A DNA stretch of 64,000 nucleotides from a virus. Location: IMG/VR virus record IMGVR_UViG_3300036790_000551, positions 1 to 64,000 of that record; one strand, written 5' to 3'. The translations under genes were made by a program, and so were the position numbers. This document shows, in pieces, positions 33,473 through 52,725 of this stretch. Position 1 is the stretch's first letter. Each line of letters opens with the position of its first letter. The notes beneath the pieces were generated by a model, which was not told the DNA's origin, did no database searches, and saw only the letters and a list, made by a program, of their open reading frames with translations.

Positions 33473-34468
33473 ATGCTTCTCATCGGTTCCAAGGCGCTGA
33501 GGCTTCGAGGCATCGACACCGGACGGCCGCCTCTCGACGTCGACGTCATCGCGACCTTCGACGAACTTGGCAAACTCACGCGATGGATGTCGGCCCGCAG
33601 TCGGACGGTTTCGATTCCCCTCTCCGTCAACAAGACGGTCCTTAAGTCTGTTGATGGAACGATAGTTGAGGTCGAGATTGCCTGGCCGGACACCGCGGCC
33701 CACTCCCTCCTCACCGAGGGGAGCGTCTGGGCCCCTGACGTCAAGGACGACTGGTTGATGTCCGCGAACGGGTTCCCGCATCCGTTCGACGTTCAGGTCG
33801 CCACCCTGGACCAACTCTATGCACTGAAGATGTCCCATCGGTACCTGAAGAACAGTCCGCACTTCCTGAAGACGATGCGTGACATCCAACTGATGCGGAG
33901 CATGGGTGCCAAGGTCGTCAGCGCAGACTGGCTGAAGCGGCGTGAACTCGAGACCTACACCTACAAGCATCCGAAGTTGAACGTGATGAAGAAGGACTTC
34001 TTCACGGGCGACGGCGTCCAGTACGTCTTCGAACACGACGACATCCACGTCGCGATGGCTCACTTCAGCGGTAAGTGTGGTGACCCTGTTCCTGCCTACA
34101 CCCTCTACGCTAAGGACGGTGAGCAGGTTAAGAGCGACAAAGTCAAGTTCCTCTCTCTCTCAGAGGATGTTCGCCTCTACGGCGTCCTCGAGGAGGCCCA
34201 GGTCCTGGCCTTGGAGCGCAGCCAGATACCCTTCCGTGGTAAGGTGGAGGCACGTCGGTCGTTCGACATCGCGCTGATGAAGGTCTGTACCAGCATCACG
34301 AGCGGTTGGTTCCGGGAGTATGCCTGGGAGAATTTCGACCGCGTGAACCTGCTCTACGAGAACGACTACGTAGAGCGTTTCTGGAGGGCCGTCGACGACG
34401 GACACGTGAGGAAGATTGCTGAAGCCGACCGACAGGACCCTGTTAGTAACCCACAAAAATTGCCTTGA
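33473..34468 (+). CDS. Pol-beta-type nucleotidyltransferase-like protein
   Basis: LIGSKA.........PLDVDVI (GS + DxD); LKMSHRY; FEHDDIH; EEAQVLALER; CTSITSGWFR. Confidence 0.65.
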   Translation: MLLIGSKALRLRGIDTGRPPLDVDVIATFDELGKLTRWMSARSRTVSIPLSVNKTVLKSVDGTIVEVEIAWPDTAAHSLLTEGSVWAPDVKDDWLMSANGFPHPFDVQVATLDQLYALKMSHRYLKNSPHFLKTMRDIQLMRSMGAKVVSADWLKRRELETYTYKHPKLNVMKKDFFTGDGVQYVFEHDDIHVAMAHFSGKCGDPVPAYTLYAKDGEQVKSDKVKFLSLSEDVRLYGVLEEAQVLALERSQIPFRGKVEARRSFDIALMKVCTSITSGWFREYAWENFDRVNLLYENDYVERFWRAVDDGHVRKIAEADRQDPVSNPQKLP

Positions 34469-35342
34469 CGGCACCGGTTCCGCGTTCGTCTTCGTGAAGG
34501 CCGGCGGCCTGCAGGCCAACGTTCGCTTTCGGTTGCCGAACAACTGCGTCCTCAAGCCCAATGACGTCATGGGCCTCGACGAGGTGTGGTTCGTTGACGT
34601 CTGCCCATCGGACCTGACCGACCCGGCCGGCGGACTTCCGTTTCGGGTCATCGACCATCACGTGACGAACGTCCGTCGATTCGATGGTGACCCCCGCTGC
34701 ACGTTCTCCCTGGACCACAGCGGAACGTCGCTGTTGGCCCGAGAGGTCGGGCTCGTGGGCTTTGACCGCCTAGTTCGGGCCCTGGAGGCGTACGACCTCG
34801 GGCGGTTCCATGACGCCGACGGCATGCTGCTAGCCGACCTCGCCTCGACATACGCCCAGGACGAGATGCTGAATCGACTCGTCGGAAGGCTTTCGAAGTC
34901 TGAGAACCTTTACGACAGCCATCCGATTCTCGATAGCGAGTACTTCGTGGCCCGCGCCGAGGGGGTCGCGGGAATGCGTGATGATTGGGCCCGGCGCTGC
35001 GCCCGGTCTGCCTACGTCTTCATCCTCGATGACAACTATGCCCTCGACGACCGCCGGTTCGTGGCAGCCCTCGCGGTCTGTCCGCCTAACTGGACAAACG
35101 CCGTCTCCCAGGCCATCATGGACCGGGACGACTTCAGGTACTGCGGAGCGGACGTGTCAGTGCAGGTCGCCGTCTGCGTCGACCCAAACGGTGGACAGGT
35201 GAGCCTGCGGACCCGGGACGACGCCGTCGACTGTAGTAGGATAGCCGAGGGCTTCGGCGGCGGCGGGCACCGTAAGGCAGCAGGTTTTCGGACCGTCGGC
35301 GGCACCGGCCTCCGCGGTCTCATTGAGGAGATATTCGAATGA
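34416..35342 (+). CDS. DHH/DHHA1 phosphoesterase
   Basis: H..CLDG, FVD, IDHH, SG..L, SLR, GGGGHRKAAGF. Confidence 0.88.
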   Translation: MLKPTDRTLLVTHKNCLDGTGSAFVFVKAGGLQANVRFRLPNNCVLKPNDVMGLDEVWFVDVCPSDLTDPAGGLPFRVIDHHVTNVRRFDGDPRCTFSLDHSGTSLLAREVGLVGFDRLVRALEAYDLGRFHDADGMLLADLASTYAQDEMLNRLVGRLSKSENLYDSHPILDSEYFVARAEGVAGMRDDWARRCARSAYVFILDDNYALDDRRFVAALAVCPPNWTNAVSQAIMDRDDFRYCGADVSVQVAVCVDPNGGQVSLRTRDDAVDCSRIAEGFGGGGHRKAAGFRTVGGTGLRGLIEEIFE

Positions 35343-36373
35343 GCCTCAGGGTTTACGGCGACAGTCTGAACTTCATCCATCGGGCGTTGATGCGAGAGTT
35401 AGCGGAGGACCCGGAGTGCGAGAGCGCTCCCCGAGGCAAACCAATCAAGGAACTCATCGCGTCGTCGTTCACGTTGACGGACCCTCGAAACCGGCTCATT
35501 ACGAGTCCGGCCCGGAAGATGAACTACGGGTTCAGCGTCGGGGAGTTCTGTTGGTACCTCCGGGGAGACACGGACCTCGAGACGATGGTCTATTACAACA
35601 AGCGGATGGCCCAGTTCTCTGATGACGGAAAGACCATCAACTCCGCCTACGGAGACAGGATGTTCAATCCGACGCCGGGATACGCCTACGGCGTCATCAA
35701 CGGGAAGTTTGGGCCATACTCCCCGTTCGAGTTTGTGATGGCGGAACTCAAGAGGGACCCCGACAGTCGTCGGGCCGTGATGCACATTAACCGGTCCCAT
35801 GACCTCATCAACGCTGTCTCCAACGGGTCCAAGGACGTCCCCTGTACTATGTCCCTGCAACTCCTCGTCAGGAACCGGAAGTTGCATATGCACGTGCTGA
35901 TGAGGAGCAGCGACATCAATTGGGGGCTTCCTCACGATGTCTTTAGTTTCACGTGCCTCCAAGAGGTCTTTCTCTATGAGTTACAGGCCGCCGGGGTGCC
36001 GGTCGATGACCTGGGGGAGTACCACCACACGGCAGGCTCCCTCCACCTCTATGAGCCATTTTACGGCCTGGCCAAGGAGATAGCGGCCGAGCCCCTTGAG
36101 ACCCCTGCTCCGATGAGCCCGTTCACTCTGGCACAGGTCCAGGGACTGGCTGAGGTGATTGAGCCGGCCATTCGGAACGGAGACCGAGGCAACCTCCTCA
36201 ACGTTGGAACCTCAGAGGGAACGGAGACGCTCTCGTGGATGACCGACCGCCTACTCGACCATCGCGTGAAGCGAGAAGCCGAGGAGGTTGAGCGCAACCG
36301 AAAGGACGCCGCTTTGAACGAACTTAGTCGATTGTCTGAAGAGATTCTTGCCGAGAAGGAGACCGAGAAGTGA
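35339..36373 (+). CDS. thymidylate synthase homologue, probable dCMP hydroxymethylase or hydroxylase
   Basis: SAYG.R, DSRRA, KDVPCT, MRSSD..WGLPHD (Asp at the ThyA Asn177 position), GSLHLY. Confidence 0.85.
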   Translation: MSLRVYGDSLNFIHRALMRELAEDPECESAPRGKPIKELIASSFTLTDPRNRLITSPARKMNYGFSVGEFCWYLRGDTDLETMVYYNKRMAQFSDDGKTINSAYGDRMFNPTPGYAYGVINGKFGPYSPFEFVMAELKRDPDSRRAVMHINRSHDLINAVSNGSKDVPCTMSLQLLVRNRKLHMHVLMRSSDINWGLPHDVFSFTCLQEVFLYELQAAGVPVDDLGEYHHTAGSLHLYEPFYGLAKEIAAEPLETPAPMSPFTLAQVQGLAEVIEPAIRNGDRGNLLNVGTSEGTETLSWMTDRLLDHRVKREAEEVERNRKDAALNELSRLSEEILAEKETEK

Positions 36374-36783
36374 GCAGTCGCCCCGACATCGAACTTGCCC
36401 TGGACGTCCGCAGCCATGAGCGCGTCGTCGTGCTGGCTTCCTCGGACTCCGAGTATGAGTATCCGGAGCATTGGATTCGTCCGTCCCGAGCCGCGGAACT
36501 TGAGCAGATAGACGAGGCCACTGTGGTCATCGTCGACCGCGCCGAGTTGCAGCGCCGCACCCTGACGACGGTCGCTGAGCGCCGTCCGCGGCTCCTGGCC
36601 GTCTCTCCGAACGGAGTGGAGGGGGAGAAGGCCGCTCGCCGGATGTTGACATCGCTCTTTCCGTGGTCCGAGGTCTGGACGATACAGACGGCGTTCGGTC
36701 GACTCCTGGTCACGAAGGACGCGGTCGGGCCGGTGTACGACCGAGAGCAACTCGTTGACATGAGAACGTCCGGAGCGGCCTGA
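36370..36783 (+). CDS. hypothetical protein in the modification cluster
   Basis: coupled ORF (GTGA overlap). Confidence 0.55.
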   Translation: MSSRPDIELALDVRSHERVVVLASSDSEYEYPEHWIRPSRAAELEQIDEATVVIVDRAELQRRTLTTVAERRPRLLAVSPNGVEGEKAARRMLTSLFPWSEVWTIQTAFGRLLVTKDAVGPVYDREQLVDMRTSGAA

Positions 36784-36784
36784 G

Positions 36785-37150
36785 ATGGCAGACAAATTGG
36801 ACAAGGTCTTTGTGAAGCAGCGCGAGTTCGTCGACATGCTCGTCGAGCACGACAAGTTTCCGGAGTATCCGGTCGACTTGACGACAAAAATCGGGCAACG
36901 GTTTGCCAAGGAGGTCATCTTCAATCTTTCTGAAGAACTCTTTGAGGCTTCGTTTACCCTGAAGAACCGTCAGCACAAGTTGAGCAACGACAACGAGTTG
37001 GACTTCGAACACTATCGTGAAGAACTCGGTGATGCGTTCGCGTACTTCATTGAACTCTGTCTCATCAGCGGCATCTCGGCCGACGACATCTACGAGGAGT
37101 ACACCCGAAAGAACGCTATCGTGAAGCAGCGATTGGCGGACGGGTACTGA
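36785..37150 (+). CDS. MazG-like all-alpha dNTP pyrophosphatase (possible dCTPase)
   Basis: EELFEA...EELGD...Y..KN....R. Confidence 0.8.
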   Translation: MADKLDKVFVKQREFVDMLVEHDKFPEYPVDLTTKIGQRFAKEVIFNLSEELFEASFTLKNRQHKLSNDNELDFEHYREELGDAFAYFIELCLISGISADDIYEEYTRKNAIVKQRLADGY

Positions 37151-37371
37151 TGTTGTATCCGTGGCCGTGCTTCATCTGTCTCTCAGTCGACTGCTGTCCC
37201 CGTAACCATCAGAACGAGTTGCTTAACGATGAGCAAACGCTTCGCTTAGCAAAGGAGATGTTCGATGACAAAGGCCTCAGGGCCGGCCGCGGCCGCATGC
37301 TGGCACGCTGCGTCATTGTTCGATTGACCGGTGTTGACCCCGGTCCTGCCTTTCCTAATGATTATTGAGGA

Positions 37372-37764
37372 TTGAATTCATTGAAGTTCCTTCGCAAGGA
37401 TAAGGACGGCGGCCCAAAATCGACCGTCACGGGATACTGGCTGACTGAGTTAAAAAGGCTCTTCAGCGTCGTGTTGTTGAAGTTCGAGAACGGAAGCCGC
37501 GAAGAATACCACTCCCATGCCTTCACGAGCCTAAACTGGGTCCTCAGTGGCCGAGTTGTTGAGCAACACGTCCAGGGAATCGAGCAGGTCCATGGGCCGA
37601 GCGTCTGGCCGGTCATTACGCACCGTCACACGTACCATCGGGTGGTGAGTGAGGGGACGACCTGGGTCTTCTCTCTCCGCGGACCATGGGCCAAGACCTG
37701 GCTTGAGTTCGACCCGAAGACGAAGCGGGAGACCACTCTGACGCACGGCCGAAAGGAAGTCTGA
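37372..37764 (+). CDS. cupin-fold protein
   Basis: YHSHAF....VLSG...E...TYHRV. Confidence 0.55.
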   Translation: MNSLKFLRKDKDGGPKSTVTGYWLTELKRLFSVVLLKFENGSREEYHSHAFTSLNWVLSGRVVEQHVQGIEQVHGPSVWPVITHRHTYHRVVSEGTTWVFSLRGPWAKTWLEFDPKTKRETTLTHGRKEV

Positions 37765-37944
37765 TGCTACGCTGTAGTCGGTACGTTTATCATGACTGCC
37801 CGAACCCCCCGACGCTAGTCGGACTTCCGTGGCCGACTCCGCTGTGTGAGGAGTGCGCCGTGGGTTGGTGTGACGGACCGAATCCGTTAGGACAGAAGGA
37901 AGTTCGTCCGATGACTGAGGATGAGTTGCGAAGGGTTAGAGAGA

Positions 37945-38529
37945 ATGGGTGACTGCGCTGACGATACGATGAACTGGGAGGACGAGCCTGGAGACCACTA
38001 CGTCGGCGACGGCGGTTTGAGTGACCAACGGCTAGATGAGTATATTCGCGGGCCTGACCGGTTTCGGCGGACATCGACGTATGACCCGAACTCGGAGCGG
38101 GCTAGGTTCGGTCGCGGTTCCGAGGTCTTCCTCGTTGGTCAGTTGAACAAACTCTGTCCCCAGGGAATGCGTCGCGTTCAACTGCTCACCGACAAACAGT
38201 TCCTCACGGCACGGGAAGCCATCGAGAACTCGCGCAACGGCGATGCCGTCGTTCAGGAAATGATTCCCGGGATGGGTTGGCGGCGCCGGCGAACGTTAGA
38301 ACTGAAGTCATCCGACGGCTGGCCGAACGTCACGATTTCAGACAGCGAGTTGGCAGAGAGTGAGGCCGAGTTCATCGTGGCCCTCACCGTCGTTAAGAAC
38401 GACCTGGCCATCTGGGCCTGCACAATGGAAAGCGCACGTGAACACTCCTTCATGCCAGGCAATGCCCGCTTCTGGGTCGTGCCTCGAGACCGAGTGCCGA
38501 CCGTACCCTTGCGAGAGGTGCTGCAGTGA
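37945..38529 (+). CDS. hypothetical protein
   Basis: ORF coupled to neighbours; start uncertain. Confidence 0.45.
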   Translation: MGDCADDTMNWEDEPGDHYVGDGGLSDQRLDEYIRGPDRFRRTSTYDPNSERARFGRGSEVFLVGQLNKLCPQGMRRVQLLTDKQFLTAREAIENSRNGDAVVQEMIPGMGWRRRRTLELKSSDGWPNVTISDSELAESEAEFIVALTVVKNDLAIWACTMESAREHSFMPGNARFWVVPRDRVPTVPLREVLQ

Positions 38530-38606
38530 GGGTCGCCTTCACCGGCCACCGGCCGGACAGGATTAACCATCGCGTCAACGAGGTCTATTCGGCCATCCAC
38601 GGATGA
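38526..38606 (+). pseudogene. 26-codon remnant of a YspA/SLOG-family gene
   Basis: (M)RVAFTGHRPDRI N-terminal motif, then early stop. Confidence 0.55.
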
Positions 38607-38625
38607 TTAAGTGGGAGAACGATGA

Positions 38626-41600
38626 GTGATTACTCAGATGACTGACCGACGCATCTCCAACCTGCACGGTCATTCATGCTTCAGTTTCCAAGACGGAATC
38701 TGCACTCCCGAGGAAATAATCGAGGCCGCTAAGGCCAAGGGCCTCCGCTCTGTGGCGCTCACGGACCACGGTCACGCACACGGCCACGGCAGGTTCTACT
38801 TGGCCGGCAAGAAGGCCGGAGTCCGCACCCTTCTCGGAATGGAGGCCTATTGCATCAATGACTTCGCCGAGTGGCATGAGTTCAAGGACAAGGTGGCTGA
38901 GGAGAAGCGGGCCCAGAAGGCCGCCGGCAAGGGCGTCGTCCCGTCAATCGACCCGAACGAGGAGCCTGAGGGGCCTGTCGATAAGGCCGCGCTTCTCAAG
39001 GCCATGTCCAAGGTCCTCTATCGCAAGGGCCACCTCGTCCTCCTTGCCCAGAACCGAACCGGCCTCGCGAACATCTACCGCCTCCAGTTCAAGGCCCACA
39101 AGCACGGGTACTACCAGAAGCCGCGCATCGACAAGCGGATGTTGGCCGAGCACGCCGAGGGCATCGTGGCCTCGTCGGCCTGCATGGGCGGAATTCTAAG
39201 CCAGAAAATCTGGGGATTGGAGCGCGGCGAACTCGAGTGGAGCGACGTGGTTCGTGAGGCCCAGGAGTACGCTGAGATATTTCCCGGTCGCTTCTTCCTC
39301 GAACTACAGAGCAACGAGGCGGCGGGCCAACGCTACATCAACGAGCACCTCATCCGGCTCTCCCAGGAGACGGGACTGCCGTTAAACGTCACGATGGACG
39401 CCCACTACGTGGACCCGGAGGACTGGCGCTCACAGCAGATGCTCCACATGCTGATGACCCACCGGGGCGGAAAGGCCCTGACTTTGAACAACCTGCCAGA
39501 GGGTTATTCGTTCGACGTGCGGTCGCTGTTCATCAAGAGCGGCGACGAGTTGTGGGAGAGTTTCCGCCGCCTGAACCCTGAAGTCGACGAGACCACGCTG
39601 GCGCGGGCCTTCGACAACACCCTTTACGCAGACAGTCTCATCAGTGACTTCGAGCCGGACACCTCGATGCGCCTTCCGTCCCTGCCGTATGAGGACACGC
39701 TCGCCGAACTTAGGAGGTCTGCCGCGGCCGGGCTCGTGGCCAAGGGCCTGGTGACCAACGACCAGTACATCGAGCGCCTCAAGTACGAACTCGGCGTCAT
39801 CAAGGAGAAGGGAATCGCGAATTACTTCCTAGTGGTCCGTAACATCTGTGACAGCGCCCGGAAGGAAATGCGCATCGGACCTGGGAGAGGCTCGAGTGCA
39901 GGGTCTTTGATTTGCTACCTGACCGGCATCACGAACATTGACCCGATAGAACACAAGTTGATGTTCGAGCGGTTCATCAACCTGGACCGAGTTGAGTTGC
40001 CGGACATCGACCTCGACTTCGAGGACGTGGACCGCATCAAGGACATTCTCCGTCGCGACTTCGGTGAGGACAACGTTGCGTGTCTCAGCGCCTTCGGAAC
40101 GTCCCAGATTAAGGGCCTGATGAAGGACGTCTGCCGCGTGCACGGCATCGACCACCAGGAGTGCAACCGCACAAACGCCCTCATCGAGCGGGAGATGAAG
40201 GCCCTTTACTCCGAGGGGGAGGGCGTCACTCGGTCGGCAATCACGATTAAACTCGACGACGTCTATCGTCTCAGTCCGTCGTTCAACGCCTTCATCGAGA
40301 AGTATCCCCAGATAGAGCGGGCCATCAAGTCCCTGTACGGCCGCGAGCACCACGTCAGCCGGCACGCCTCAGGCGTCGTCATCGGCGACGACCTGCCGGC
40401 CGAGACCTCTGTCTTCACGTCAAAGGGCGTGGTCCAGGCCTCGTTCACGGACGGAATCGTCGGAAAGACGGCGAGCAGCATGGGCCTGGTGAAGTTCGAC
40501 ATCCTGTCGCTCGCCACGCTCAAGGTCATCGCCAAGGCCCTCGAACTAATTGCCGAACGGACAGGGCGGACCGTGTCCGACGTCGACCGTGAAATCGACC
40601 CGAAAGTCATGGACTTTAACAATCTAGACGTCCTGAAGAAGGTCTTCTGGGAGGGCAACACAACCGGCATCTTCTCCGTGACTTCCGCTGGCATGGTTAA
40701 ACTCTTCCAGCGAGTAAAACCGACCTCATTCGATGACGTTGCCGCCGTTACGGCCCTCTTCCGCCCGGGCCCACTCGGCTCGAAGATGGACGTGATGTTC
40801 GCCAATCGCAAGAACGGCCTCGAGGAGGTCACGTACGACCATCCGATACTCGAGAGCATCATGAAGGACACCTACGGATGTCTCGTCTATCAAGAGCAGA
40901 TGCTGGAAATCGGCCGTCTGATGGGAAAGATGTCATGGAAGGACACCAACCGGCTCCGCAAGTTATTCCTCAAGAAGGACAAGAGCAAGGCGGACGGCTA
41001 CATCGACGAGGAGGAGCGGTACCTCAAGTCCACCCTCATCAAGGGCGTCGTCGAGAATGGGCTCACCGAAGAGCACGGGGAGAAACTCTGGGAGATGTGC
41101 GGGAAGTTCGGGGGCTACGGGTTTAACCGTTCACATTCATATGCCTACGCCATGGTCACGATGCAGACCGCGTACCTGCGCTACCACTACCCGCTCGAGT
41201 TCTTCGCGGCGTTGCTTACGGTCGGTCAGGCCGTCGACCTTCAGACGTACGTGAACGAGATTCGGGCCCAGGGCTTCGAGGTGCTGCCGGTCGACGTCAA
41301 CAGGTCCAAGGCCGCGCACGTCATGGAAGGCAACGCCATCAGGCTCGCCCTCTCCTCTGTGAAGGGCATCGGGCCATCCGCCGTGCAGAAGATTGTGGAC
41401 CACCAGCCCTACGCGGACTGGGAGGCCTTCCTTCTCGACAGCACCTGCTCGAAGACCATCGTGAACGCACTCATCGGTTGCGGGGCCTTCACGGAACTCT
41501 GTCCGGGCCTCTCCGTACGCACCCTGGACGCCCGCCACACCCACTTTCGTGGGGACAAGAAACTCTCCCACAAGAAGAACCGAGACACCGTCCGACCCAC

Positions 41601-42084
41601 GCTGGAGGCCATCTGGGCCGATGCGGATGACCCCATCGAACTGATGGAGCGGGAGCGTGAACTGCTCGGCTTCAACCTTCGCGGGACTCCCTTCGGCATC
41701 AACGGCCGTTACGACAAGGTCGACCGGCTCGTTGAGCAAGGCATCTGCTCCCGCGGTTGGGCTGAGTTCGTCGAGGACCAGTCAGAGCCTGTGCTTGTGG
41801 CCCCGCTCCTGGTGAAGTCCATCAAGGAGCGGGCGCAGAAGAACGGAAAACTCATGGCTTTCCTTCGACTAGAGGACCGTGACGGCAACGATTACGAGGC
41901 ACCGGCGTTCGGTAACGTCTGGGGGCACGTCCGGGAGCACGTCCGGCAGGGGGACGTCTACGTGTGCATCCTCCACCGCAAGGAGGAGGAACCGGACCGG
42001 TTCATCGTGGGGCGGCCGGGTTGGGCCCAGACCGCGAAGTCGGCCCAGCAGAGTTTCATTCCGATTGACAGGCTCACCGTTTAG
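38626..42084 (+). CDS. dnaE: DNA polymerase III alpha subunit
   Basis: PHP domain LHGHS.FS..DG/TDHG; GRGSSAGS; PDIDLDF; HASGV; KFDIL; YGFNRSHS; OB fold. Confidence 0.95.
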   Translation: MITQMTDRRISNLHGHSCFSFQDGICTPEEIIEAAKAKGLRSVALTDHGHAHGHGRFYLAGKKAGVRTLLGMEAYCINDFAEWHEFKDKVAEEKRAQKAAGKGVVPSIDPNEEPEGPVDKAALLKAMSKVLYRKGHLVLLAQNRTGLANIYRLQFKAHKHGYYQKPRIDKRMLAEHAEGIVASSACMGGILSQKIWGLERGELEWSDVVREAQEYAEIFPGRFFLELQSNEAAGQRYINEHLIRLSQETGLPLNVTMDAHYVDPEDWRSQQMLHMLMTHRGGKALTLNNLPEGYSFDVRSLFIKSGDELWESFRRLNPEVDETTLARAFDNTLYADSLISDFEPDTSMRLPSLPYEDTLAELRRSAAAGLVAKGLVTNDQYIERLKYELGVIKEKGIANYFLVVRNICDSARKEMRIGPGRGSSAGSLICYLTGITNIDPIEHKLMFERFINLDRVELPDIDLDFEDVDRIKDILRRDFGEDNVACLSAFGTSQIKGLMKDVCRVHGIDHQECNRTNALIEREMKALYSEGEGVTRSAITIKLDDVYRLSPSFNAFIEKYPQIERAIKSLYGREHHVSRHASGVVIGDDLPAETSVFTSKGVVQASFTDGIVGKTASSMGLVKFDILSLATLKVIAKALELIAERTGRTVSDVDREIDPKVMDFNNLDVLKKVFWEGNTTGIFSVTSAGMVKLFQRVKPTSFDDVAAVTALFRPGPLGSKMDVMFANRKNGLEEVTYDHPILESIMKDTYGCLVYQEQMLEIGRLMGKMSWKDTNRLRKLFLKKDKSKADGYIDEEERYLKSTLIKGVVENGLTEEHGEKLWEMCGKFGGYGFNRSHSYAYAMVTMQTAYLRYHYPLEFFAALLTVGQAVDLQTYVNEIRAQGFEVLPVDVNRSKAAHVMEGNAIRLALSSVKGIGPSAVQKIVDHQPYADWEAFLLDSTCSKTIVNALIGCGAFTELCPGLSVRTLDARHTHFRGDKKLSHKKNRDTVRPTLEAIWADADDPIELMERERELLGFNLRGTPFGINGRYDKVDRLVEQGICSRGWAEFVEDQSEPVLVAPLLVKSIKERAQKNGKLMAFLRLEDRDGNDYEAPAFGNVWGHVREHVRQGDVYVCILHRKEEEPDRFIVGRPGWAQTAKSAQQSFIPIDRLTV

Positions 42085-42396
42085 TGATATGATTGAATGG
42101 GATGCATGAGTACGCGGAGCCCGATAGGTGGGGACGGACGTTCCGCACCTGCACAGCGTGCTTCTATCGGGCCCGTCGCGACGACCGGTACACGATAATT
42201 GACAACGCGTGTCCCGCCTGCAACGGGGGCACGTTGGTCCTTGAGAGCGACCTCCCTGCCTGCTTCTGGGGCGTGATGTGGCTCTGCTTCATTGTTCGAA
42301 TCGTGATGACCGGCTGGCACGCTGAGTTGATGCAGGACGATGCGAGGCTCCGGTTCTCGCTGATGGAATTGGATTGAAAGGTGATAGGATACCGGC

Positions 42397-43383
42397 ATGG
42401 CTGACACCGCACTCGTCGTACCCAGCATTCGGGAGGACAGCCTCAAGAGGTTCATCCGTGAGTGGGAACCGACCGGTTTATTCGACCGCGTCGACCTCAT
42501 AATCATGGAGGACAATTCGCAGAAGTCATTCGAGACGCCTGCGGCCGCCAAACTCCATCTCTGCTGGGAGGACATCGATAACCACGACTGGGGTTGGATA
42601 ATCCCGCGACGGTCAGACACCGTGCGGTCGTACGCCTACTGGCGGGCCTGGAGCGACGGCTACGACTACCTGATGTCGTTTGACGATGACGTCTACCCCG
42701 AGCCCGGGTACGAACCGGTCGATGAAATACACAAGTCGATGCTCACCCGAACCAAGTGGTTCAACACGTTGAACAGCGTGCGACCCCGTGGCACACCGTA
42801 CTACAACCTCGGTCAGCGCCAGGTCCACGTCAACCACGGGCTCTGGACCGGTGTGCTCGACTACGACGCCCCGCAGCAACTGGTGAACCCGATACCCGAG
42901 ACGTTCACCCATGACAACCGCATCGTTCCGCACGGAGCGTTCTTCTCCTTCTGTGGAATGAACGTGATTTTCCGTCGCGAGGCGATGGTGCTCAGTTACC
43001 ACCTCATGATGGGCCAGATGATGACCGACAGCGGTCAACTCGAACGGCTCTTTGCGGATAGAATGGGGGACATTTGGTGCGGCATCATCATGAAGAAGGT
43101 CTGCGACCACCTCCGCTGGGCCGTCAGCAGCGGCACCCCGTACATCCACCACGACCGAGCATCGAACCCGTTCACCAATCTTAGGAAGGAGGCTCCAGGA
43201 ATTGAGGTGAACGAGTGGTTCTGGCAACGCATCGATGAAATCAGGCTCACCGCTAAGACTGCAGTCGGATGCTACAAACAGATAGCGAACGGCGTCCGGG
43301 GCTTCGGCGGTGAACACGCCGCATACTGGGACCGGCTCGCCGAGGCGATGGACGTCTGGGCCTCGCTGTTCATTGGCGGCTGA
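42397..43383 (+). CDS. RGP / UDP-arabinopyranose mutase family protein (GT75)
   Basis: PSIR, FDDD, RGTPY, HGLW....DYDAPQQL, CGMN, DIWCG...KKVCDHL, PYIHH.RASNPF.NL.KE..GI match the plant RGP consensus. Confidence 0.88.
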   Translation: MADTALVVPSIREDSLKRFIREWEPTGLFDRVDLIIMEDNSQKSFETPAAAKLHLCWEDIDNHDWGWIIPRRSDTVRSYAYWRAWSDGYDYLMSFDDDVYPEPGYEPVDEIHKSMLTRTKWFNTLNSVRPRGTPYYNLGQRQVHVNHGLWTGVLDYDAPQQLVNPIPETFTHDNRIVPHGAFFSFCGMNVIFRREAMVLSYHLMMGQMMTDSGQLERLFADRMGDIWCGIIMKKVCDHLRWAVSSGTPYIHHDRASNPFTNLRKEAPGIEVNEWFWQRIDEIRLTAKTAVGCYKQIANGVRGFGGEHAAYWDRLAEAMDVWASLFIGG

Positions 43384-43835
43384 TGTCATACTCGGGAACC
43401 TATAAGGGAGTTCGCTTCCGGTCGCTGCTGGAACTGTCAGTCATCAAAAACCTCGAATCCGCCGGGTTTGTGTTGGGTGCCACGATGCTCTACGAGACGA
43501 CTAGGATTCCCTATGGAAAGACTAGGGTGAGGACCTACATCGTCGACCTAACGCTCCCTCAGATGAAAACGTTAGTCGAGGTGAAGCCCAGTTCCCGAGC
43601 CGACAATCGAAACAACCGAGCCAAGCGGTCCGCCGCGGAGGCCTGGTGTCTCGCGAACGGCTGGACGTACGTCATCGTCACCGAGGAGGAGTTGCACGAG
43701 TGCGGCCACGGCATCACCCTCGAGGAGGCAGCGACGATGCCTGACGTGGAGTTGAACGAGCGGGCCAAGCGAGCGAACCGGCGAAAGGCCGCTGCACGGG
43801 CCCGACGGCGTGTTAAGATGAAGGGAAAGAAATGA
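43383..43835 (+). CDS. TnsA-like / gp4-like PD-(D/E)xK endonuclease
   Basis: FRS.LE, YE...IPY, TY.VD, LVEVKP, K..AA..WC, VTE.EL. Confidence 0.75.
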   Translation: MSYSGTYKGVRFRSLLELSVIKNLESAGFVLGATMLYETTRIPYGKTRVRTYIVDLTLPQMKTLVEVKPSSRADNRNNRAKRSAAEAWCLANGWTYVIVTEEELHECGHGITLEEAATMPDVELNERAKRANRRKAAARARRRVKMKGKK

Positions 43836-43995
43836 GCGTAAGGCCAAAACAAGACCCGTTTCGGAGGGTCAGCGGTGACCCGCGGGTCCAACACCAACTC
43901 CTCGCTCGTCGTGTGACTGAACTCGAGGGGACCGTCATAATCCTCGACGCACGGGTGAAACTGCTTGAGGAACTCGTCGCTCATCTCCAAGGTAC

Positions 43996-44535
43996 TTGAG
44001 ATTGACTGACGTTCGTTCAATCATCGTCGAGGGCCCCGATAGGGTCGGCAAGACCACAATCGTCAAGCATCTGTCCCAGTGGATGTACCTGCCTGCCTTC
44101 AAGGCACCCTCCGAGAAGATAATCTTCAAAGAGGGAGGCCGACAGTCCCTGGTGTTCGATTACACCCTCACCCACTTCCTGGCGCAGACCGGTCATAGGT
44201 TCATCAGCGACCGTAGTTATCCAAGTGAGTGCGTGTACTCGAAGGTCTTCGAACGGGACACCGATTGGGACCTCTTGAACCGCATCGATGAGGCCCACTC
44301 CAGCATCGGAACGACGATTCTCTACCTCTACTCGTCGACCGAGCCCACGGAGAAGGACGACCTCGTACCCGACGGGATGTACTGGACGGTCAAGGAGCGG
44401 TACGATTGGTTCCGCGACTGGACCGACTGCCGGGTAGTCTCCTACGATACCGCGGACATGCTGAAGGCATTCGGTGAGGGCTACGACGACAGTCCCCTAC
44501 ACGTCCATCGAATTATGAGGGAAATTTTGAAATGA
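43996..44535 (+). CDS. deoxynucleoside monophosphate kinase
   Basis: IIVEGPDRVGKTT P-loop; ISDRSYPSE.VY. Confidence 0.85.
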   Translation: MRLTDVRSIIVEGPDRVGKTTIVKHLSQWMYLPAFKAPSEKIIFKEGGRQSLVFDYTLTHFLAQTGHRFISDRSYPSECVYSKVFERDTDWDLLNRIDEAHSSIGTTILYLYSSTEPTEKDDLVPDGMYWTVKERYDWFRDWTDCRVVSYDTADMLKAFGEGYDDSPLHVHRIMREILK

Positions 44536-44936
44536 CAGACAGGAAACCGCTACCGACCCTTGTTCAAATCGCCAAGGGCGAGGCTGAGTTCGAGTTCTAT
44601 TCCGATGGAAAGATGCAGTATAGGCTGTGGTGGAGTGAACACGACGACTTCGAGCGTGACCCGGTGTGGCATGAGTTTCACGTCCCCATTCCCGTCGCTG
44701 ATACCGGCGGGGGATTCTTCAATCCCACGATGAAGGGCCTCGAGTTGATGCGTTGGGCTCGTAAGGAACTCGCTCGCCTTCAAGAGGAGGCCGAAATGGT
44801 CGCTAAGGCCCGTGAGGAGTGGTTGACTGAGCAGGACGCGATGATGACGATTATCGAAGCCGACGTTGCCGCCCTCTCCATCACCGAGCGTGGAATTGAA
44901 CTTGATGGCTTCATCAAAAACAAAAAGACGAAGTAG
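44532..44936 (+). CDS. hypothetical protein
   Basis: coupled ORF (ATGA overlap). Confidence 0.5.
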   Translation: MTDRKPLPTLVQIAKGEAEFEFYSDGKMQYRLWWSEHDDFERDPVWHEFHVPIPVADTGGGFFNPTMKGLELMRWARKELARLQEEAEMVAKAREEWLTEQDAMMTIIEADVAALSITERGIELDGFIKNKKTK

Positions 44937-45222
44937 CAAGCGTCGAGGCAATTGCTACGTGACCGCCGAGGCGCTCTACCACCTGTTGGGCGGCAAGGCG
45001 GGCGGCTACACGCCGCACACCGTCCGGCACGAGGGCGCGGTCCACTGGTACCTTGTGCAGAACCTCGATGGGTTCGTCCCGGGCGCGAGGCAGGTCATCG
45101 ACCCAACGGCAGCGCAGTTCAAGACACCGCCGCCGTACCATGAAGGCCGCGGTCGCGGCTTCCTGACGAAGGTCCCGAGCAGGCGGACCCGAGAGATGAT
45201 GAAGAGGATGCTCTACGGATGA
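44905..45222 (+). CDS. small papain/transglutaminase-like protein
   Basis: GNCYVTAEALYH, HWYL, IDPTA.QF (Cys-His-Asp). Confidence 0.5.
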   Translation: MASSKTKRRSSKRRGNCYVTAEALYHLLGGKAGGYTPHTVRHEGAVHWYLVQNLDGFVPGARQVIDPTAAQFKTPPPYHEGRGRGFLTKVPSRRTREMMKRMLYG

Positions 45223-46403
45223 GGATAGGCTATCTCTTCCGCGGTTACCTTGGTGACGTCAAGTGGGACGCGGCCGGCAACGAGGTCTCCACTCCTGACG
45301 GCAATGCCACATACTCGTGGTCAATCGAGCATGAGTGTGAACGGAGGAAGCATAAACTGATTCCACTCGGAGAGAACCTCGACGCGCCGGCAGCCGCATC
45401 CCTCGGGCCCGACCTCTTCAAGGCCTTCAGCGGCTCCAAGCGGGCCAAGTCATACGAGCGGATGCTCCGTCGCGGCTGGTCCCGGCTCTCTGAACGAACG
45501 TTTCCTGCGCTCGACCTGGTCCTCGTGGAGTGGCGCTGGCCCATTCCCGGTCGAAACACCCCAGCGGACCGAGAGAGCGTCGACTACCGGCGTGACCTCG
45601 AGCGACAATGGGAGGTCCTCAGACACTACTCCAATGCCGGCACCCCCATAGTGGTCTGGGACCTCGACCACAAACTGACCGAGTTGGACGTGGAGATGAT
45701 GCAGGCGGCCGACATGCCGGTCCGCTTCATTGAGACCGCAGTCAAGCCTAAGGCTTGGGCCCGACGAGTTGAGCCTCCGACGCTCGTCGCGGACCTCTGC
45801 CAGCACGACATCAACCCCCGCCTGCCCTCTCACCACCTGGGCTACGTCGGCTCCCGTTACGAGCGGGACGAGACGATAGACAAGTGGATTCACCCCATCG
45901 CGAACGTGAACGGGCATCGGGCCAAGTTCTGGGGAAAATGGGAGCCCTCTGATGAGGTCCGGACCCGCTGGCCGGGAATCACCTTTGCGGGCAGGATTGG
46001 AGTCAGGGACTTCTATGATGCTTATTCAAGAGTTGCAGCGGTTCCGTTGCTGGCAAAGCAGTCGTACTACAGGTCCGGCTTCATTACCCCTCGAGTTTGG
46101 GAGGCGGTCCTGTTCGGCTCCATTCCCATTGGGCTCGCCGGCCACCGCGGCATCGGTCAATACGTGGAGCGGGTGGCCATTGACTCACGGGGCCTCCTTG
46201 AGGCGGCCACGGAGATTCGCAACATCTCATCAATCCGCCGTCGCGTTCTGCGGGAGGAGGCGGCGCATAGGTTATCCCATATGGACGCTCGGCATTTCGT
46301 CGACGTTCTCGAGGGGTTGGTAGATGCGGTGGCCAAGGATTTTGAGTCGACCGCTGAAGTTCCTGAGACGCAAGAAGGCACAGAACATGGCAACCAAGAG
46401 TAA
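45219..46403 (+). CDS. GT-B glycosyltransferase, candidate DNA glycosyltransferase
   Basis: VVWDLD, LGYVGSRYER, FAGRI, FITPRVWEA..FG.IP resemble the T4 BGT-like C-terminal domain. Confidence 0.7.
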   Translation: MRIGYLFRGYLGDVKWDAAGNEVSTPDGNATYSWSIEHECERRKHKLIPLGENLDAPAAASLGPDLFKAFSGSKRAKSYERMLRRGWSRLSERTFPALDLVLVEWRWPIPGRNTPADRESVDYRRDLERQWEVLRHYSNAGTPIVVWDLDHKLTELDVEMMQAADMPVRFIETAVKPKAWARRVEPPTLVADLCQHDINPRLPSHHLGYVGSRYERDETIDKWIHPIANVNGHRAKFWGKWEPSDEVRTRWPGITFAGRIGVRDFYDAYSRVAAVPLLAKQSYYRSGFITPRVWEAVLFGSIPIGLAGHRGIGQYVERVAIDSRGLLEAATEIRNISSIRRRVLREEAAHRLSHMDARHFVDVLEGLVDAVAKDFESTAEVPETQEGTEHGNQE

Positions 46404-49424: not shown

Positions 49425-50303
49425 ATGCTGATTTCCGCACGCGTCATCGCTGACTCAATCAACCCGGACGGCGACCGCCTGACGACGGTCGAGGCGGTCT
49501 TCAATAGGTGGATACTGGCCGAACTCAACACCCATCGCATGCTGAGTCGGAACTCCGCCAGTTCCCGAGCCATCCCAGTCGCGCGCGTGCTGAAGCAGGT
49601 CTGGCGGGAGCCGGCCTACCCCGTGCACTGGGGCAAGAACCAGGCGGGAATGCAGAGTAAGAGTGAACTCGGAGGACTGCGTCTCTGGTTGGCGAAGCGC
49701 CTCTTCTTCTGGGCCCGCGTCCCCGCGCTGGTCCTCGTTTGGCTCCTCAGCAAGGTCGGCCTCCACAAGCAGGTAGCCAACCGCATTCTGGAGCCCTGGG
49801 TCTGGCACACGGCAATCATCAGCAGCACGACCTGGCACAACTTCTTCAAGTTGCGAGCGCATCCGGATGCCCAGCCCGAGTTCAAGGAGTTGGCTTATAA
49901 GATGAACCAAGCCATTAACTGCAGCGAACCTCGAAGGTTGGAATGGGGTGAGTGGCACCTGCCGTACGCTGACGGGTTGGACGTCAAGACGGCTTCCGGC
50001 GCCGCCGTCCTGCCTTCAATGGTGAAGGTCTCGGCCGCGTGCTGCGCTAGGGTCTCCTACGTTCGACAGAATGACCGGAAGTCTATCGAAGAGGACGTGA
50101 CGCTTTCCGACAGGCTCGGCGCGAACGGACACTTCTCTCCCCTCGAGCATCCGGCCCGGGCGGAGCGCGGCCAATGGGGGAACTTCCGGGGCTGGAAGCA
50201 GGCGCGAAAGTTTTACGCCAATGAATCAGGCGAACCGAAACAGAAGTGCCTCTGTGAGAACGACCTCTACACGTCAGGCTGCCCGACCCACGGGCACAGT
50301 TGA
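49425..50303 (+). CDS. thyX: flavin-dependent thymidylate synthase
   Basis: ELNTHRMLSRNSASSR, HKQ..NRILEP, NFFKLR.HPDAQPE, CARVSY, HFSPLEH. Confidence 0.9.
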   Translation: MLISARVIADSINPDGDRLTTVEAVFNRWILAELNTHRMLSRNSASSRAIPVARVLKQVWREPAYPVHWGKNQAGMQSKSELGGLRLWLAKRLFFWARVPALVLVWLLSKVGLHKQVANRILEPWVWHTAIISSTTWHNFFKLRAHPDAQPEFKELAYKMNQAINCSEPRRLEWGEWHLPYADGLDVKTASGAAVLPSMVKVSAACCARVSYVRQNDRKSIEEDVTLSDRLGANGHFSPLEHPARAERGQWGNFRGWKQARKFYANESGEPKQKCLCENDLYTSGCPTHGHS

Positions 50304-51680: not shown

Positions 51681-52096
51681 TGTTGACATGTCCCGTGTGC
51701 GGCGAGTACTCATGTAAATACTGGCAATGGTGCAAGATGAATACAGGACCGAAACAATCGACGCCAGTTCCCTCGGGACAGATGAAGACCGACGGAGATA
51801 CCACTCATCGAGTTCCCCGTTTCGAGCCGGAGGCCTTGCCTGAGATATACGGTGAGTCACTCGAGGAGCGTGACAACGACCCAGTGAACCACCCATCGCA
51901 TTACACTGCCAGTGGCATTGAAACGATTGATGTCATCGAGGCATGGGACCTAGACTTCTGTTTGGGGAACGCCGTGAAGTACATCTCTCGTGCCGGCAAG
52001 AAGGACCCCGAGAAGGAACTGGAAGACCTCAAGAAGGCTCGGTGGTACGTTGACCGTCGCATCGAGCAAATTCAAAATCGAGGAAAAACCGGATGA
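51680..52096 (+). CDS. DUF3310 (T7 gp1.7-like nucleotide kinase domain) protein
   Basis: DPVNHPSHY, IETID, FCLGNAVKYISRAGKK, EDLKKARWY. Confidence 0.85.
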   Translation: MLTCPVCGEYSCKYWQWCKMNTGPKQSTPVPSGQMKTDGDTTHRVPRFEPEALPEIYGESLEERDNDPVNHPSHYTASGIETIDVIEAWDLDFCLGNAVKYISRAGKKDPEKELEDLKKARWYVDRRIEQIQNRGKTG

Positions 52097-52725
52097 TTTC
52101 ATTACGCTTGCTCGTCAATAATGAGGTCTGTTGCGACGTCGACGGCGTCGTGGCAGACCTCGTGGGCGGCCTGCAGGGGTGGCTCCTCACGACCTATGGC
52201 GTTGAGATGGACCGGTCTCGGGTCGTCTATCACAACGACATGGGTCGCTCTCCCGGCATCAGGGAGACAACGGCTCGAAAACTGATGAGGTTCTTTCCAA
52301 GCGCAGAGACCCCGGAGCAGGCGTTCTCCTTCGCGTTCGAGGCCTTCATGAAGGACCGCGACGTCTACGGTCGCTACATCCCCGTCATTCCCGGGGCGCT
52401 TGAGGGAATCGCGGCCATCCAGCAGAGGTACGAGGTGGTCTTCGTGACCGCCCTCATGAAGAAGGCCCGCGACCACTTTCGCTCCAAGATGGAGTGGATT
52501 GAGCGATGGTTTCCCGGTTGCGAGGTCATCACGGCCACGGCCAGCAAGAAGCGCATGGTCCGCGGCCGGTATGCTATCGATGACCGCTACGACACCTGCG
52601 CCATGTATAGGGCGGCCGGCACCGAGCCCCTGCTCTTCGAACAGCCATGGAACGAGGTTCCCGACGGCGTCGTCGAGCCAAGTTACGACTGGAAGGGAAT
52701 CGTGCAGAGGATATGCGATGAGTGA
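52093..52725 (+). CDS. HAD-family 5'(3')-deoxyribonucleotidase
   Basis: DVDGVVAD, FVTA, K.EW...F, IDDR, QPWN. Confidence 0.85.
   Translation: MISLRLLVNNEVCCDVDGVVADLVGGLQGWLLTTYGVEMDRSRVVYHNDMGRSPGIRETTARKLMRFFPSAETPEQAFSFAFEAFMKDRDVYGRYIPVIPGALEGIAAIQQRYEVVFVTALMKKARDHFRSKMEWIERWFPGCEVITATASKKRMVRGRYAIDDRYDTCAMYRAAGTEPLLFEQPWNEVPDGVVEPSYDWKGIVQRICDE

Follow-up and report, generated by a model that had tools for sequence, protein, structure and literature searches.

Sugar-coated cytosines are a main route by which phages escape restriction enzymes and CRISPR, and they decide which defences see the phage; the sugars described are glucose-type hexoses on 5-hydroxymethylcytosine (5hmC), joined since 2018-2026 by arabinofuranose or hexoses on 5-hydroxycytosine (5hoC). 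Phage T4 uses a thymidylate synthase (TS)-family hydroxymethylase (gp42), a dCTPase (gp56), a dNMP kinase (gp1) and α- and β-glucosyltransferases supplied with host UDP-glucose. Here we analyse a locus in a viral stretch of 64,000 nucleotides (the window), which is the first 64 kb of the linear 92.8-kb IMG/VR virus record IMGVR_UViG_3300036790_000551. A TS homologue, a MazG-like pyrophosphatase, a P-loop nucleotide kinase, a GT-B glycosyltransferase (GT) and a protein of the GT75/RGP family, which includes plant UDP-arabinopyranose mutases (UAM) and actinobacterial MtdL, are grouped around dnaE, with a ThyX-like gene standing apart; all the genes named in an original prediction, made from the letters alone, lie on the + strand where it had placed them (Table 1). 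We propose, at a probability of roughly 0.5, that this is a pre-replicative, T4-type module for cytosine replacement and glycosylation in a large clade of uncultured phages, with the mutase feeding DNA glycosylation.

In the proposed pathway, the TS homologue would convert dCMP to 5-hydroxymethyl-dCMP, as its active-site residues suggest, and family and position point to the P-loop kinase and host NDP kinase for raising it to the triphosphate and to the MazG-like pyrophosphatase for removing dCTP. DnaE, provided that it takes the modified dCTP as a substrate, would make 5hmC DNA, and the GT-B enzyme, going by its modelled fold and its linkage to the TS homologue, would move a sugar onto the hydroxymethyl group of DNA. 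The GT75 enzyme, with Arg131, Asp225 and a Mn2+ site, would turn an NDP-pyranose into an NDP-furanose, the donor for the GT-B enzyme or for a further sugar, and ThyX would keep dTMP synthesis separate. Together, the phage genes probably replace cytosine in DNA with hydroxymethylcytosine and glycosylate it in the manner of T4, judging from sequence and predicted structure. More tentatively, at a little under even odds, the sugar on 5hmC would be a furanose (galactofuranose or 6-deoxyhexofuranose) whose donor is made by the GT75 mutase.

The locus resembles T4 in combining a TS-family hydroxymethylase that has Asp at the Asn177 position with a pyrophosphatase, a kinase and a GT-B enzyme. Unlike T4, the window phage has a DnaE polymerase and an additional GT75 mutase, and its GT, kinase and pyrophosphatase have no detectable sequence similarity to their T4 counterparts, the kinase being TMPK/YorR-like and the pyrophosphatase of MazG/dUTPase_2 type. 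Phages RB69, DLP3 and HY126, which carry arabinosyl-5hoC, share with the window phage a cluster of kinase, GT-B and TS genes and a TS homologue whose best solved relative is MilA; their TS homologues are D169N flavin-dependent hydroxylases making 5hoC, whereas the window enzyme keeps Asp (PMC13326640). Their UDP-D-arabinofuranose comes from ribulose-5-phosphate via an isomerase, a kinase/pyrophosphorylase and a phosphatase, with no mutase (PMC13326640), and none of these donor-synthesis enzymes was seen in the window phage. The likeness lies in a furanose on a C5-oxygenated cytosine with phage-encoded donor supply, predicted here from genes; the analogy to arabinosylated cytosine in RB69 drawn in the original prediction is a loose one: a furanosyl cytosine fits, and the 5hoC base and mutase-free donor do not. 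For the hexosyl-5hoC of Rhizobium phage RL38J1 and the Pootjesviridae, a UDP-galactopyranose mutase (UGM) was predicted computationally (PMC13326640). There, as here, the donor of a DNA GT is proposed to come from a phage mutase that interconverts pyranose and furanose forms, and RL38J1 gp151 and the window GT share the top Foldseek template 7fg9. RL38J1 differs in that its predicted mutase is of the flavin UGM type (templates 4rpl, 5er9), which shares neither fold nor mechanism with GT75, and is encoded far from the TS-GT genes; the base there is 5hoC.

If correct, the proposal would give GT75 its first role in nucleic-acid modification, adding a base and an enzyme logic that are both new, and furanosyl DNA a second, non-homologous route beside the flavin UGM and the RB69 arabinose pathway; a large viral branch of GT75 would for the first time acquire a function in this context. 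Soil and freshwater metagenomes contain the module widely, with hundreds of relatives, and its spread could distort the results that sequencing and restriction-based methods give on such samples. As a compact five-gene kit, it is testable in E. coli without phage culture.

The predicted dCMP hydroxymethylase and its partner enzymes

The best PDB match of the TS homologue is the CMP 5-hydroxymethylase MilA (8.5e-34), with true TS at 6e-12. The catalytic Cys of MilA, TS and T4 gp42 (E. coli Cys146) has its aligned counterpart in Cys169, within KDVPC, and the RSSD..WGLPHD motif quoted in the original prediction is found as R189-S-S-D192 ... G196-L-P-H-D200. In HMMER alignments Asp200 corresponds to E. 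coli Asn177, T4 gp42 Asp179 and MilA Asp186. Asn occupies this position in the two tested enzymes that hydroxymethylate dUMP, those of SPO1 (gp29) and SP-10, in agreement with the earlier argument that Asp in place of ThyA Asn177 specifies dCMP. Furthermore, Asp166, three residues before Cys169, occupies the E. coli Leu143 position, where an acidic residue is associated with water access and hydroxymethylation (Lee et al. 2026, PMC13326640); this position is Asp or Glu in all 17 aligned TS homologues from the clade or linked to the GT. Asp192, within MRSSD, corresponds to E. coli Asp169 and is kept, as it is in all aligned clade and GT-linked homologues, whereas D169N occurs in all 5-hydroxy-dCMP synthases of a limited tested set (Lee et al. 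2026, PMC13326640). Given the retained Asp192 and the published D169N rule, the window protein is predicted not to be a 5hoC synthase. Ser190 and Arg144 are of the deoxyribose type (E. coli Ser167 and Arg126'), not the Ala and Lys of CMP enzymes, by the pocket residues defined for MilA versus T4 and E. coli (PMC5175136). This signature recurs in each clade member and GT-linked homologue aligned. Together, these residues predict 5-hydroxymethyl-dCMP as the product, rather than 5-hydroxy-dCMP, a ribonucleotide or a uracil derivative; of the '5-hydroxy(methyl)' product originally suggested, the hydroxymethyl form fits Asp166, and the hydroxy form is disfavoured by the kept Asp192.

Asp at the E. 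coli Asn177 position was also seen in TS homologues of Pseudoxanthomonas phage PW916 and Bacillus phage G (gp319) (L021 and L020; L and G numbers denote the IMG/VR or phage loci and genomes compared), which are annotated as deoxyuridylate hydroxymethyltransferase or thymidylate synthase. These two proteins may act on dCMP, in which case their current annotation would be wrong.

The 394-aa protein at the end of the locus had no Pfam, PHROG or NCBIfam match, and tblastn against 50,697 phage records found none at E 1e-3. Its AlphaFold2 model, built with 47 homologues (pLDDT 92.8), has a GT-B fold with two Rossmann domains, bearing out the GT-B call made from the letters; the same fold rules out a diverged sliding clamp, which had been considered for this protein. 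The best Foldseek matches include the T4 α-glucosyltransferase (AGT) and β-glucosyltransferase (BGT), with Z 21.4 to BGT (rmsd 3.6, 303/351 aligned) and 19.6 to AGT; Z is 21.7 to PimA, so that BGT is tied with PimA and other non-DNA GT4 enzymes. Distant homologues of the GT (28-38% identity) occur in five other phages (L034-L038), where a TS homologue carrying the Asp/Asp signature always lies within ~4 kb, adjacent in L034 and L036; among these five, RGP occurs only in L038. This strict linkage points to 5hmC in DNA as the acceptor of the GT-B enzyme, whose fold is that of a predicted model.

The MazG-like protein matches dUTPase_2 over its C-terminal half only (7.3e-6, 26.8 bits against a cut-off of 22.9) and phrog_12184, 'nucleotide pyrophosphohydrolase' (1.7e-14); a PDB sequence search gave no match up to E 1. 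It is conserved at an upstream position in 10 of the 12 related loci (40-64% identity), and its counterpart in L038 lies between the TS homologue and the kinase. The kinase has a P-loop, GPDRVGKT, and follows RGP in 12/12 related loci. Its family matches are all weak (phrog_761 'thymidylate kinase', 8.5e-11; YorR in the PDB, E 0.05) and do not reach the curated thresholds (Thymidylate_kin, 21 bits against 27; TIGR00041 1.6e-5, 24.7 against 83), so the dNMP kinase originally named stands as a P-loop nucleotide kinase whose specific family is only weakly matched. A comparable kinase adjoins the GT and TS genes in DLP3, RB69 and RL38J1, and this published kinase-GT-TS triad is repeated here. Some clade members also encode a dCMP deaminase (G002:C1:42033-42368, ~1.5 kb from the GT; G004:C1:6003-6323); none was detectable in G001, G003 or G000, the whole 92.8-kb genome (window positions 1-64000 plus L045 and L046).

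The order DnaE, RGP, kinase, GT is found in 12/12 related IMG/VR contigs with GC contents of 34-65%, and a TS homologue is encoded upstream, both in the window and in each relative examined. At these 12 loci, RGP of the DnaE clade is always between DnaE and the kinase and never beside a glycan cluster. Close RGP homologues (60-79% identity) are abundant in metagenomes, on contigs up to 214 kb, near-complete records of the clade measure 185-197 kb, and the lists of RGP and GT homologues contain 26 equal sizes among contigs of at least 20 kb. A similar gene set occurs in L038, a PolA-type phage unrelated to the window (GC 36%), as a single run of overlapping open reading frames (ORFs): dCMP deaminase, TS, MazG-like, kinase, RGP, a uracil-DNA glycosylase (UDG)-superfamily protein, GT-B and PolA. 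The grouping of MazG-like protein, kinase, GT-B enzyme and GT75 mutase on which the original prediction was built is thus conserved as a set in the DnaE clade and L038. The UDG-superfamily protein (L038:9252-10004) lies between RGP and GT-B, inside the modification operon.

The GT75 enzyme and its candidate substrates

The RGP protein matches PF03214 over positions 7-336 of 342 (4.8e-37, 128 bits against a cut-off of 23.8), and its PDB sequence matches are rice UAM2 (8cid; 6.6e-18, full length) and MtdL (6.8e-15). Its structural model is of moderate quality (pLDDT 73); the top seven Foldseek matches are MtdL entries and rice UAM2 (E ~1e-12, TM 0.67-0.69), and the next fold follows at 3e-4. Identity is ~22% to both rice UAM2 and MtdL, so that the 'close match to the RGP/UAM consensus' first reported was overstated, and 'plant-type' does not describe a protein at the same distance from the plant UAM and the actinobacterial MtdL. 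Sequence and model agree that it is a true member of GT75, equidistant from the plant and actinobacterial enzymes.

Residues tested in MtdL were transferred to the RGP protein through the PDB-search alignment. MtdL D87 corresponds to D74, D109-111 to D96-98, the nucleophile R159 to R131, D195 to D155, R257 to R222, D260 to D225, H287 to H252 and R289 to R254. Across 28 close homologues none of these residues varies, and the core set is likewise kept across 44 distant homologues: the Mn2+-binding D96-D97-D98 and H252 are invariant in the former and conserved in the latter, and R131-G-x-P (which holds the autoglycosylated Arg, rice UAM1 Arg158), D155 and D225 are invariant in both alignments. 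The protein therefore shares with UAM and MtdL full-length homology, the fold, the DxD motif, the nucleophile Arg, the two Asp, the Mn-binding His and the phosphate-binding Arg. It differs from them in its ~22% identity and its mixed base-preference residues, and from MtdL in Gly187-Met188; the members known so far supply sugars for cell walls or antibiotics, and none is known to do so for DNA.

The known substrates of GT75 enzymes are UDP-L-Ara and UDP-D-Gal (plant UAM/RGP) and GDP-L-Fuc and GDP-L-Gal (actinobacterial MtdL/Hyg20) (PMC9937993), and the plant enzymes also convert UDP-Galp to UDP-Galf. The base-preference positions of the window protein are mixed, Pro9 being plant-like and Ser73-Asp74 MtdL-like; together with Gly187/Met188, this means that the nucleotide and the sugar cannot be read from the RGP sequence. 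A full-text literature search found no paper tying GT75/RGP to phages or DNA modification, in keeping with the original statement that this donor-supply route was not known from described phage systems; mutase-fed DNA glycosylation as such has been proposed before, with the flavin UGM of RL38J1. A cluster look-up of ten distant RGP representatives returned almost no names, and two scans of 185,579 GTDB species genomes for conserved peptide patterns of the RGP clade found no relative.

Nothing in the genes points to arabinose, the sugar of the RB69 analogy in the original prediction. A plant-like supply of UDP-arabinose, through UDP-xylose synthase and a 4-epimerase, was considered and rejected, there being no best-scoring short-chain dehydrogenase/reductase (SDR) for it in G000, G001 or G003. 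The candidate donors are UDP-galactofuranose, from host UDP-galactose, and a 6-deoxyhexofuranose made via RfbF-like and 4,6-dehydratase-like genes. Just past the window, at L045:2118-4619 (G000 64118-66619), lies a trio comprising an RfbF-like gene, a gene for a 211-aa protein and a 4,6-dehydratase-like SDR gene. The RfbF-like protein is closest to glucose-1-phosphate cytidylyltransferase (4.9e-55, below the equivalog cut-off), the SDR is closest to dTDP- or CDP-glucose 4,6-dehydratase (~1e-42), and an ESM Atlas search with the 211-aa ORF returned unnamed viral clusters only. The trio also occurs in G001 (L050), ~20 kb from RGP; G003 has the dehydratase-like gene only, and the 52.8-kb L038 record has no SDR sugar enzyme. 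A search of G000 with PF01370 at E 0.001 gave one match only and did not pick up a putative degenerate SDR near 70.7 kb. On these sequences, the trio possibly supplies a 6-deoxyhexose donor in the window phage; it is not a fixed partner of RGP.

The link between the mutase and DNA glycosylation

A number of observations weigh against the proposed role of the mutase, or against the pathway as a whole, every step of which is read from genes. The RGP model has pLDDT <50 over positions 119-174 and 246-263, regions with catalytic residues. MtdL Ser228 and Gln229, which make sugar and phosphate contacts, are replaced by Gly187 and Met188, and MtdL Q229A is inactive; rice UAM2 has Gly-Ile at the aligned position, so this pair is not family-wide. 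GATC is absent from the whole 92.8-kb genome against 320 sites expected under a Markov model, and AGCT occurs 10 times against 230, while other 4-base palindromes in G000 are near expectation and the relatives L013, L006, L012, L002, L014 and L010 show no GATC/AGCT depletion. Since fully sugared cytosines would be expected to block type II enzymes, this avoidance is hard to reconcile with such DNA; its cause would be incomplete protection of the two sites or a different pressure.

The genomic context adds further points on the same side. In a wider scan of 74 viral RGP loci (L051-L124, IMG/VR), with partners sought within 10 kb, 68 had neither this GT family nor a TS homologue; the GT family was present in six and a TS homologue in four, and all six were the window clade or L038. 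The hidden Markov models used would miss other DNA-GT families, so this count of links between RGP and a DNA module is a lower bound. Elsewhere the neighbours of RGP are mostly GT2, SDR sugar enzymes, methyltransferases, radical-SAM/B12 proteins and GT1 (17 GT2 among the 113 ORFs flanking viral RGPs), which indicates that the usual job of viral GT75 is glycan synthesis. Large GT clusters in the near-complete relatives G001 and G003 are possible real users of a furanose donor, and four phages (G005-G008, three of them ≥91% complete) have the GT and TS homologue without RGP, so this mutase is dispensable for the GT family. In the RGP tree, those RGPs of the DnaE clade that are linked to a TS homologue fall into a single clade (support 100%), and the synteny may therefore reflect inheritance rather than function; the tree, in which L038 has no firm position, is compatible both with independent recruitment and with its absence. 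Co-occurrence of RGP with the TS/GT pair, offered originally as a check, thus fails for most viral RGPs and is found in one well-supported RGP subclade and in L038.

These contexts would suit an arrangement in which 5hmC DNA is glycosylated from a host pyranose donor, such as UDP-glucose, and GT75 serves a separate glycan pathway directed at virion proteins or at the polysaccharide of the GT2/GT4/GT9 cluster, its place beside DnaE being an inherited order. Viral RGPs usually have glycan enzymes and no TS nearby, that of phage LR756511 sits among sulfotransferases and methyltransferases, the G001/G003 clusters include GalE-like and heptose-epimerase-like SDRs, and the GT-TS pair of G005-G008 manages without RGP. 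However, RGP in L038 lies between the kinase and GT-B in an operon solely of nucleotide and DNA enzymes, in a record where SDR sugar enzymes were not found, and RGP of the DnaE clade never adjoins a glycan cluster. We regard this arrangement as unlikely, if deserving of more weight than the others. Alternatively, the GT-B enzyme and the mutase might both act on a small molecule or protein, leaving the TS homologue alone to give bare 5hmC DNA. The modelled fold, which ties T4 BGT with PimA, BshA, TarM and tetrahydrobiopterin glucosyltransferases, and the lack of sequence similarity to known DNA glycosyltransferases would allow this; yet the GT is linked to TS over six phage backbones, adjacent to it in two, and sits inside the nucleotide operon of L038, which makes a non-DNA target very improbable.

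The modified base itself might differ, the TS homologue making 5-methyl-dCMP, 5-hydroxy-dCMP or a dUMP derivative, with correspondingly different acceptor chemistry. The nearest annotated phage homologues are indeed labelled dUMP hydroxymethylases, and the D169N rule comes from a limited tested set; however, SPO1 gp29 and SP-10 keep Asn177 where the window protein and all clade members have Asp, Asp166 fits hydroxymethylation, Asp192 is kept unlike in every tested 5hoC synthase, and the best solved relatives are hydroxymethylases, so that another base appears improbable. Quite improbable, in our judgement, is that the GT75 protein is itself a glycosyltransferase, adding a first or second DNA sugar or glycosylating, as a primer, an Arg of its own or of another protein: besides acting as mutases, members of GT75 are arginine glycosyltransferases of GT-A fold, and GT-A enzymes are frequent in phage DNA-glycosylation neighbourhoods, but no member is known to transfer to anything except its own arginine and most MtdL mutase residues are kept. 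A furanose on 5hmC, supplied by the GT75 mutase, is the reading that we prefer to each of these.

The wider scan showed viral GT75/RGP to be widespread, some of the 74 loci lying on contigs of 435-572 kb, and this large branch appears uncharacterised. The sole INPHARED match is the 595-kb phage LR756511.1, where the region L004:13453-18136 has RGP with two sulfotransferases, methyltransferases and a protein with a discoidin domain as its flanking genes, suggesting a sulfated, methylated furanose glycan. The glycan clusters of G003 (L048:895-15356) and G001 (L047) encode a protein of 1050-1055 aa that combines GT4, GT9 and GT2 domains, together with at least five other GTs and a methyltransferase in addition to the SDRs.

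Gene content of the window

The source record is ~45% complete by CheckV, the GC content of the window is ~60%, and the stretch is present in DNA of two soil metagenomes, with no RNA data set listed for it. No cultured phage is close: megablast of the region against the 50,697 phage records gave no match, and the closest known phage DnaE has at most ~33% identity to that of the window. The block around the locus, on the + strand, carries phage replication and nucleotide metabolism genes: RecA, a 5'-3' exonuclease, a DnaB-like helicase, a class II ribonucleotide reductase, DnaE, ThyX, an NT5C nucleotidase and DUF3310.

Table 1. Features at and around the locus, in window coordinates
Feature	Position	Strand	Evidence and context
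DUF7277 + DUF7275 protein, 331 aa	33473-34468		3.6e-62; directly upstream of the DHH-like gene
DHH/DHHA1-like phosphoesterase	34416-35342	+	Pfam DHHA1 4.2e-5, slightly under cut-off
TS homologue, predicted dCMP 5-hydroxymethylase	35339-36373	+	Pfam Thymidylat_synt 1.3e-17
137-aa protein between TS and MazG	36370-36783	+	no Pfam/PHROG match; conserved only in the closest relative, L013
MazG/dUTPase_2-type all-alpha NTP pyrophosphatase, candidate dCTPase	36785-37150	+	Pfam dUTPase_2, phrog_12184
Small cupin-like protein	37372-37764	+	phrog_4786 2.3e-17, no Pfam match; among relatives only in L013
DnaE-type replicative polymerase	38626-42084	+	Pfam PHP, DNA_pol3_alpha, finger, HHH_6
GT75/RGP-family enzyme, predicted metal-dependent NDP-pyranose to NDP-furanose mutase	42397-43383	+	Pfam RGP 4.8e-37
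TnsA/endonuclease-I-like nuclease	43383-43835	+	Pfam Tn7_TnsA-like_N 1.4e-8; between RGP and kinase
P-loop nucleotide kinase (TMPK/dNK/YorR-like), candidate modified-dCMP kinase	43996-44535	+	phrog_761, TIGR00041
Two overlapping small ORFs, 134 aa and 118 aa, between kinase and GT	44532-45222	+	phrog_20427, phrog_12251, both 'unknown function'
GT-B glycosyltransferase, unnamed family, predicted DNA (5hmC) glycosyltransferase	45219-46403	+	AlphaFold2 model, genomic coupling
ThyX-like flavin thymidylate synthase, separate dTMP supply	49425-50303	+	Pfam Thy1 2.6e-9; conserved in L012, L013, L014
NT5C-type deoxypyrimidine 5'-nucleotidase, nucleotide-pool enzyme	52093-52725	+	Pfam NT5C 3.8e-9

The TnsA-like nuclease occurs in only L013 and L014 among the 12 syntenic loci and is probably a mobile or homing-type insert outside the pathway. 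A homologue of the DHH-like gene immediately precedes the TS homologue in L002, L003, L009, L011 and L014.

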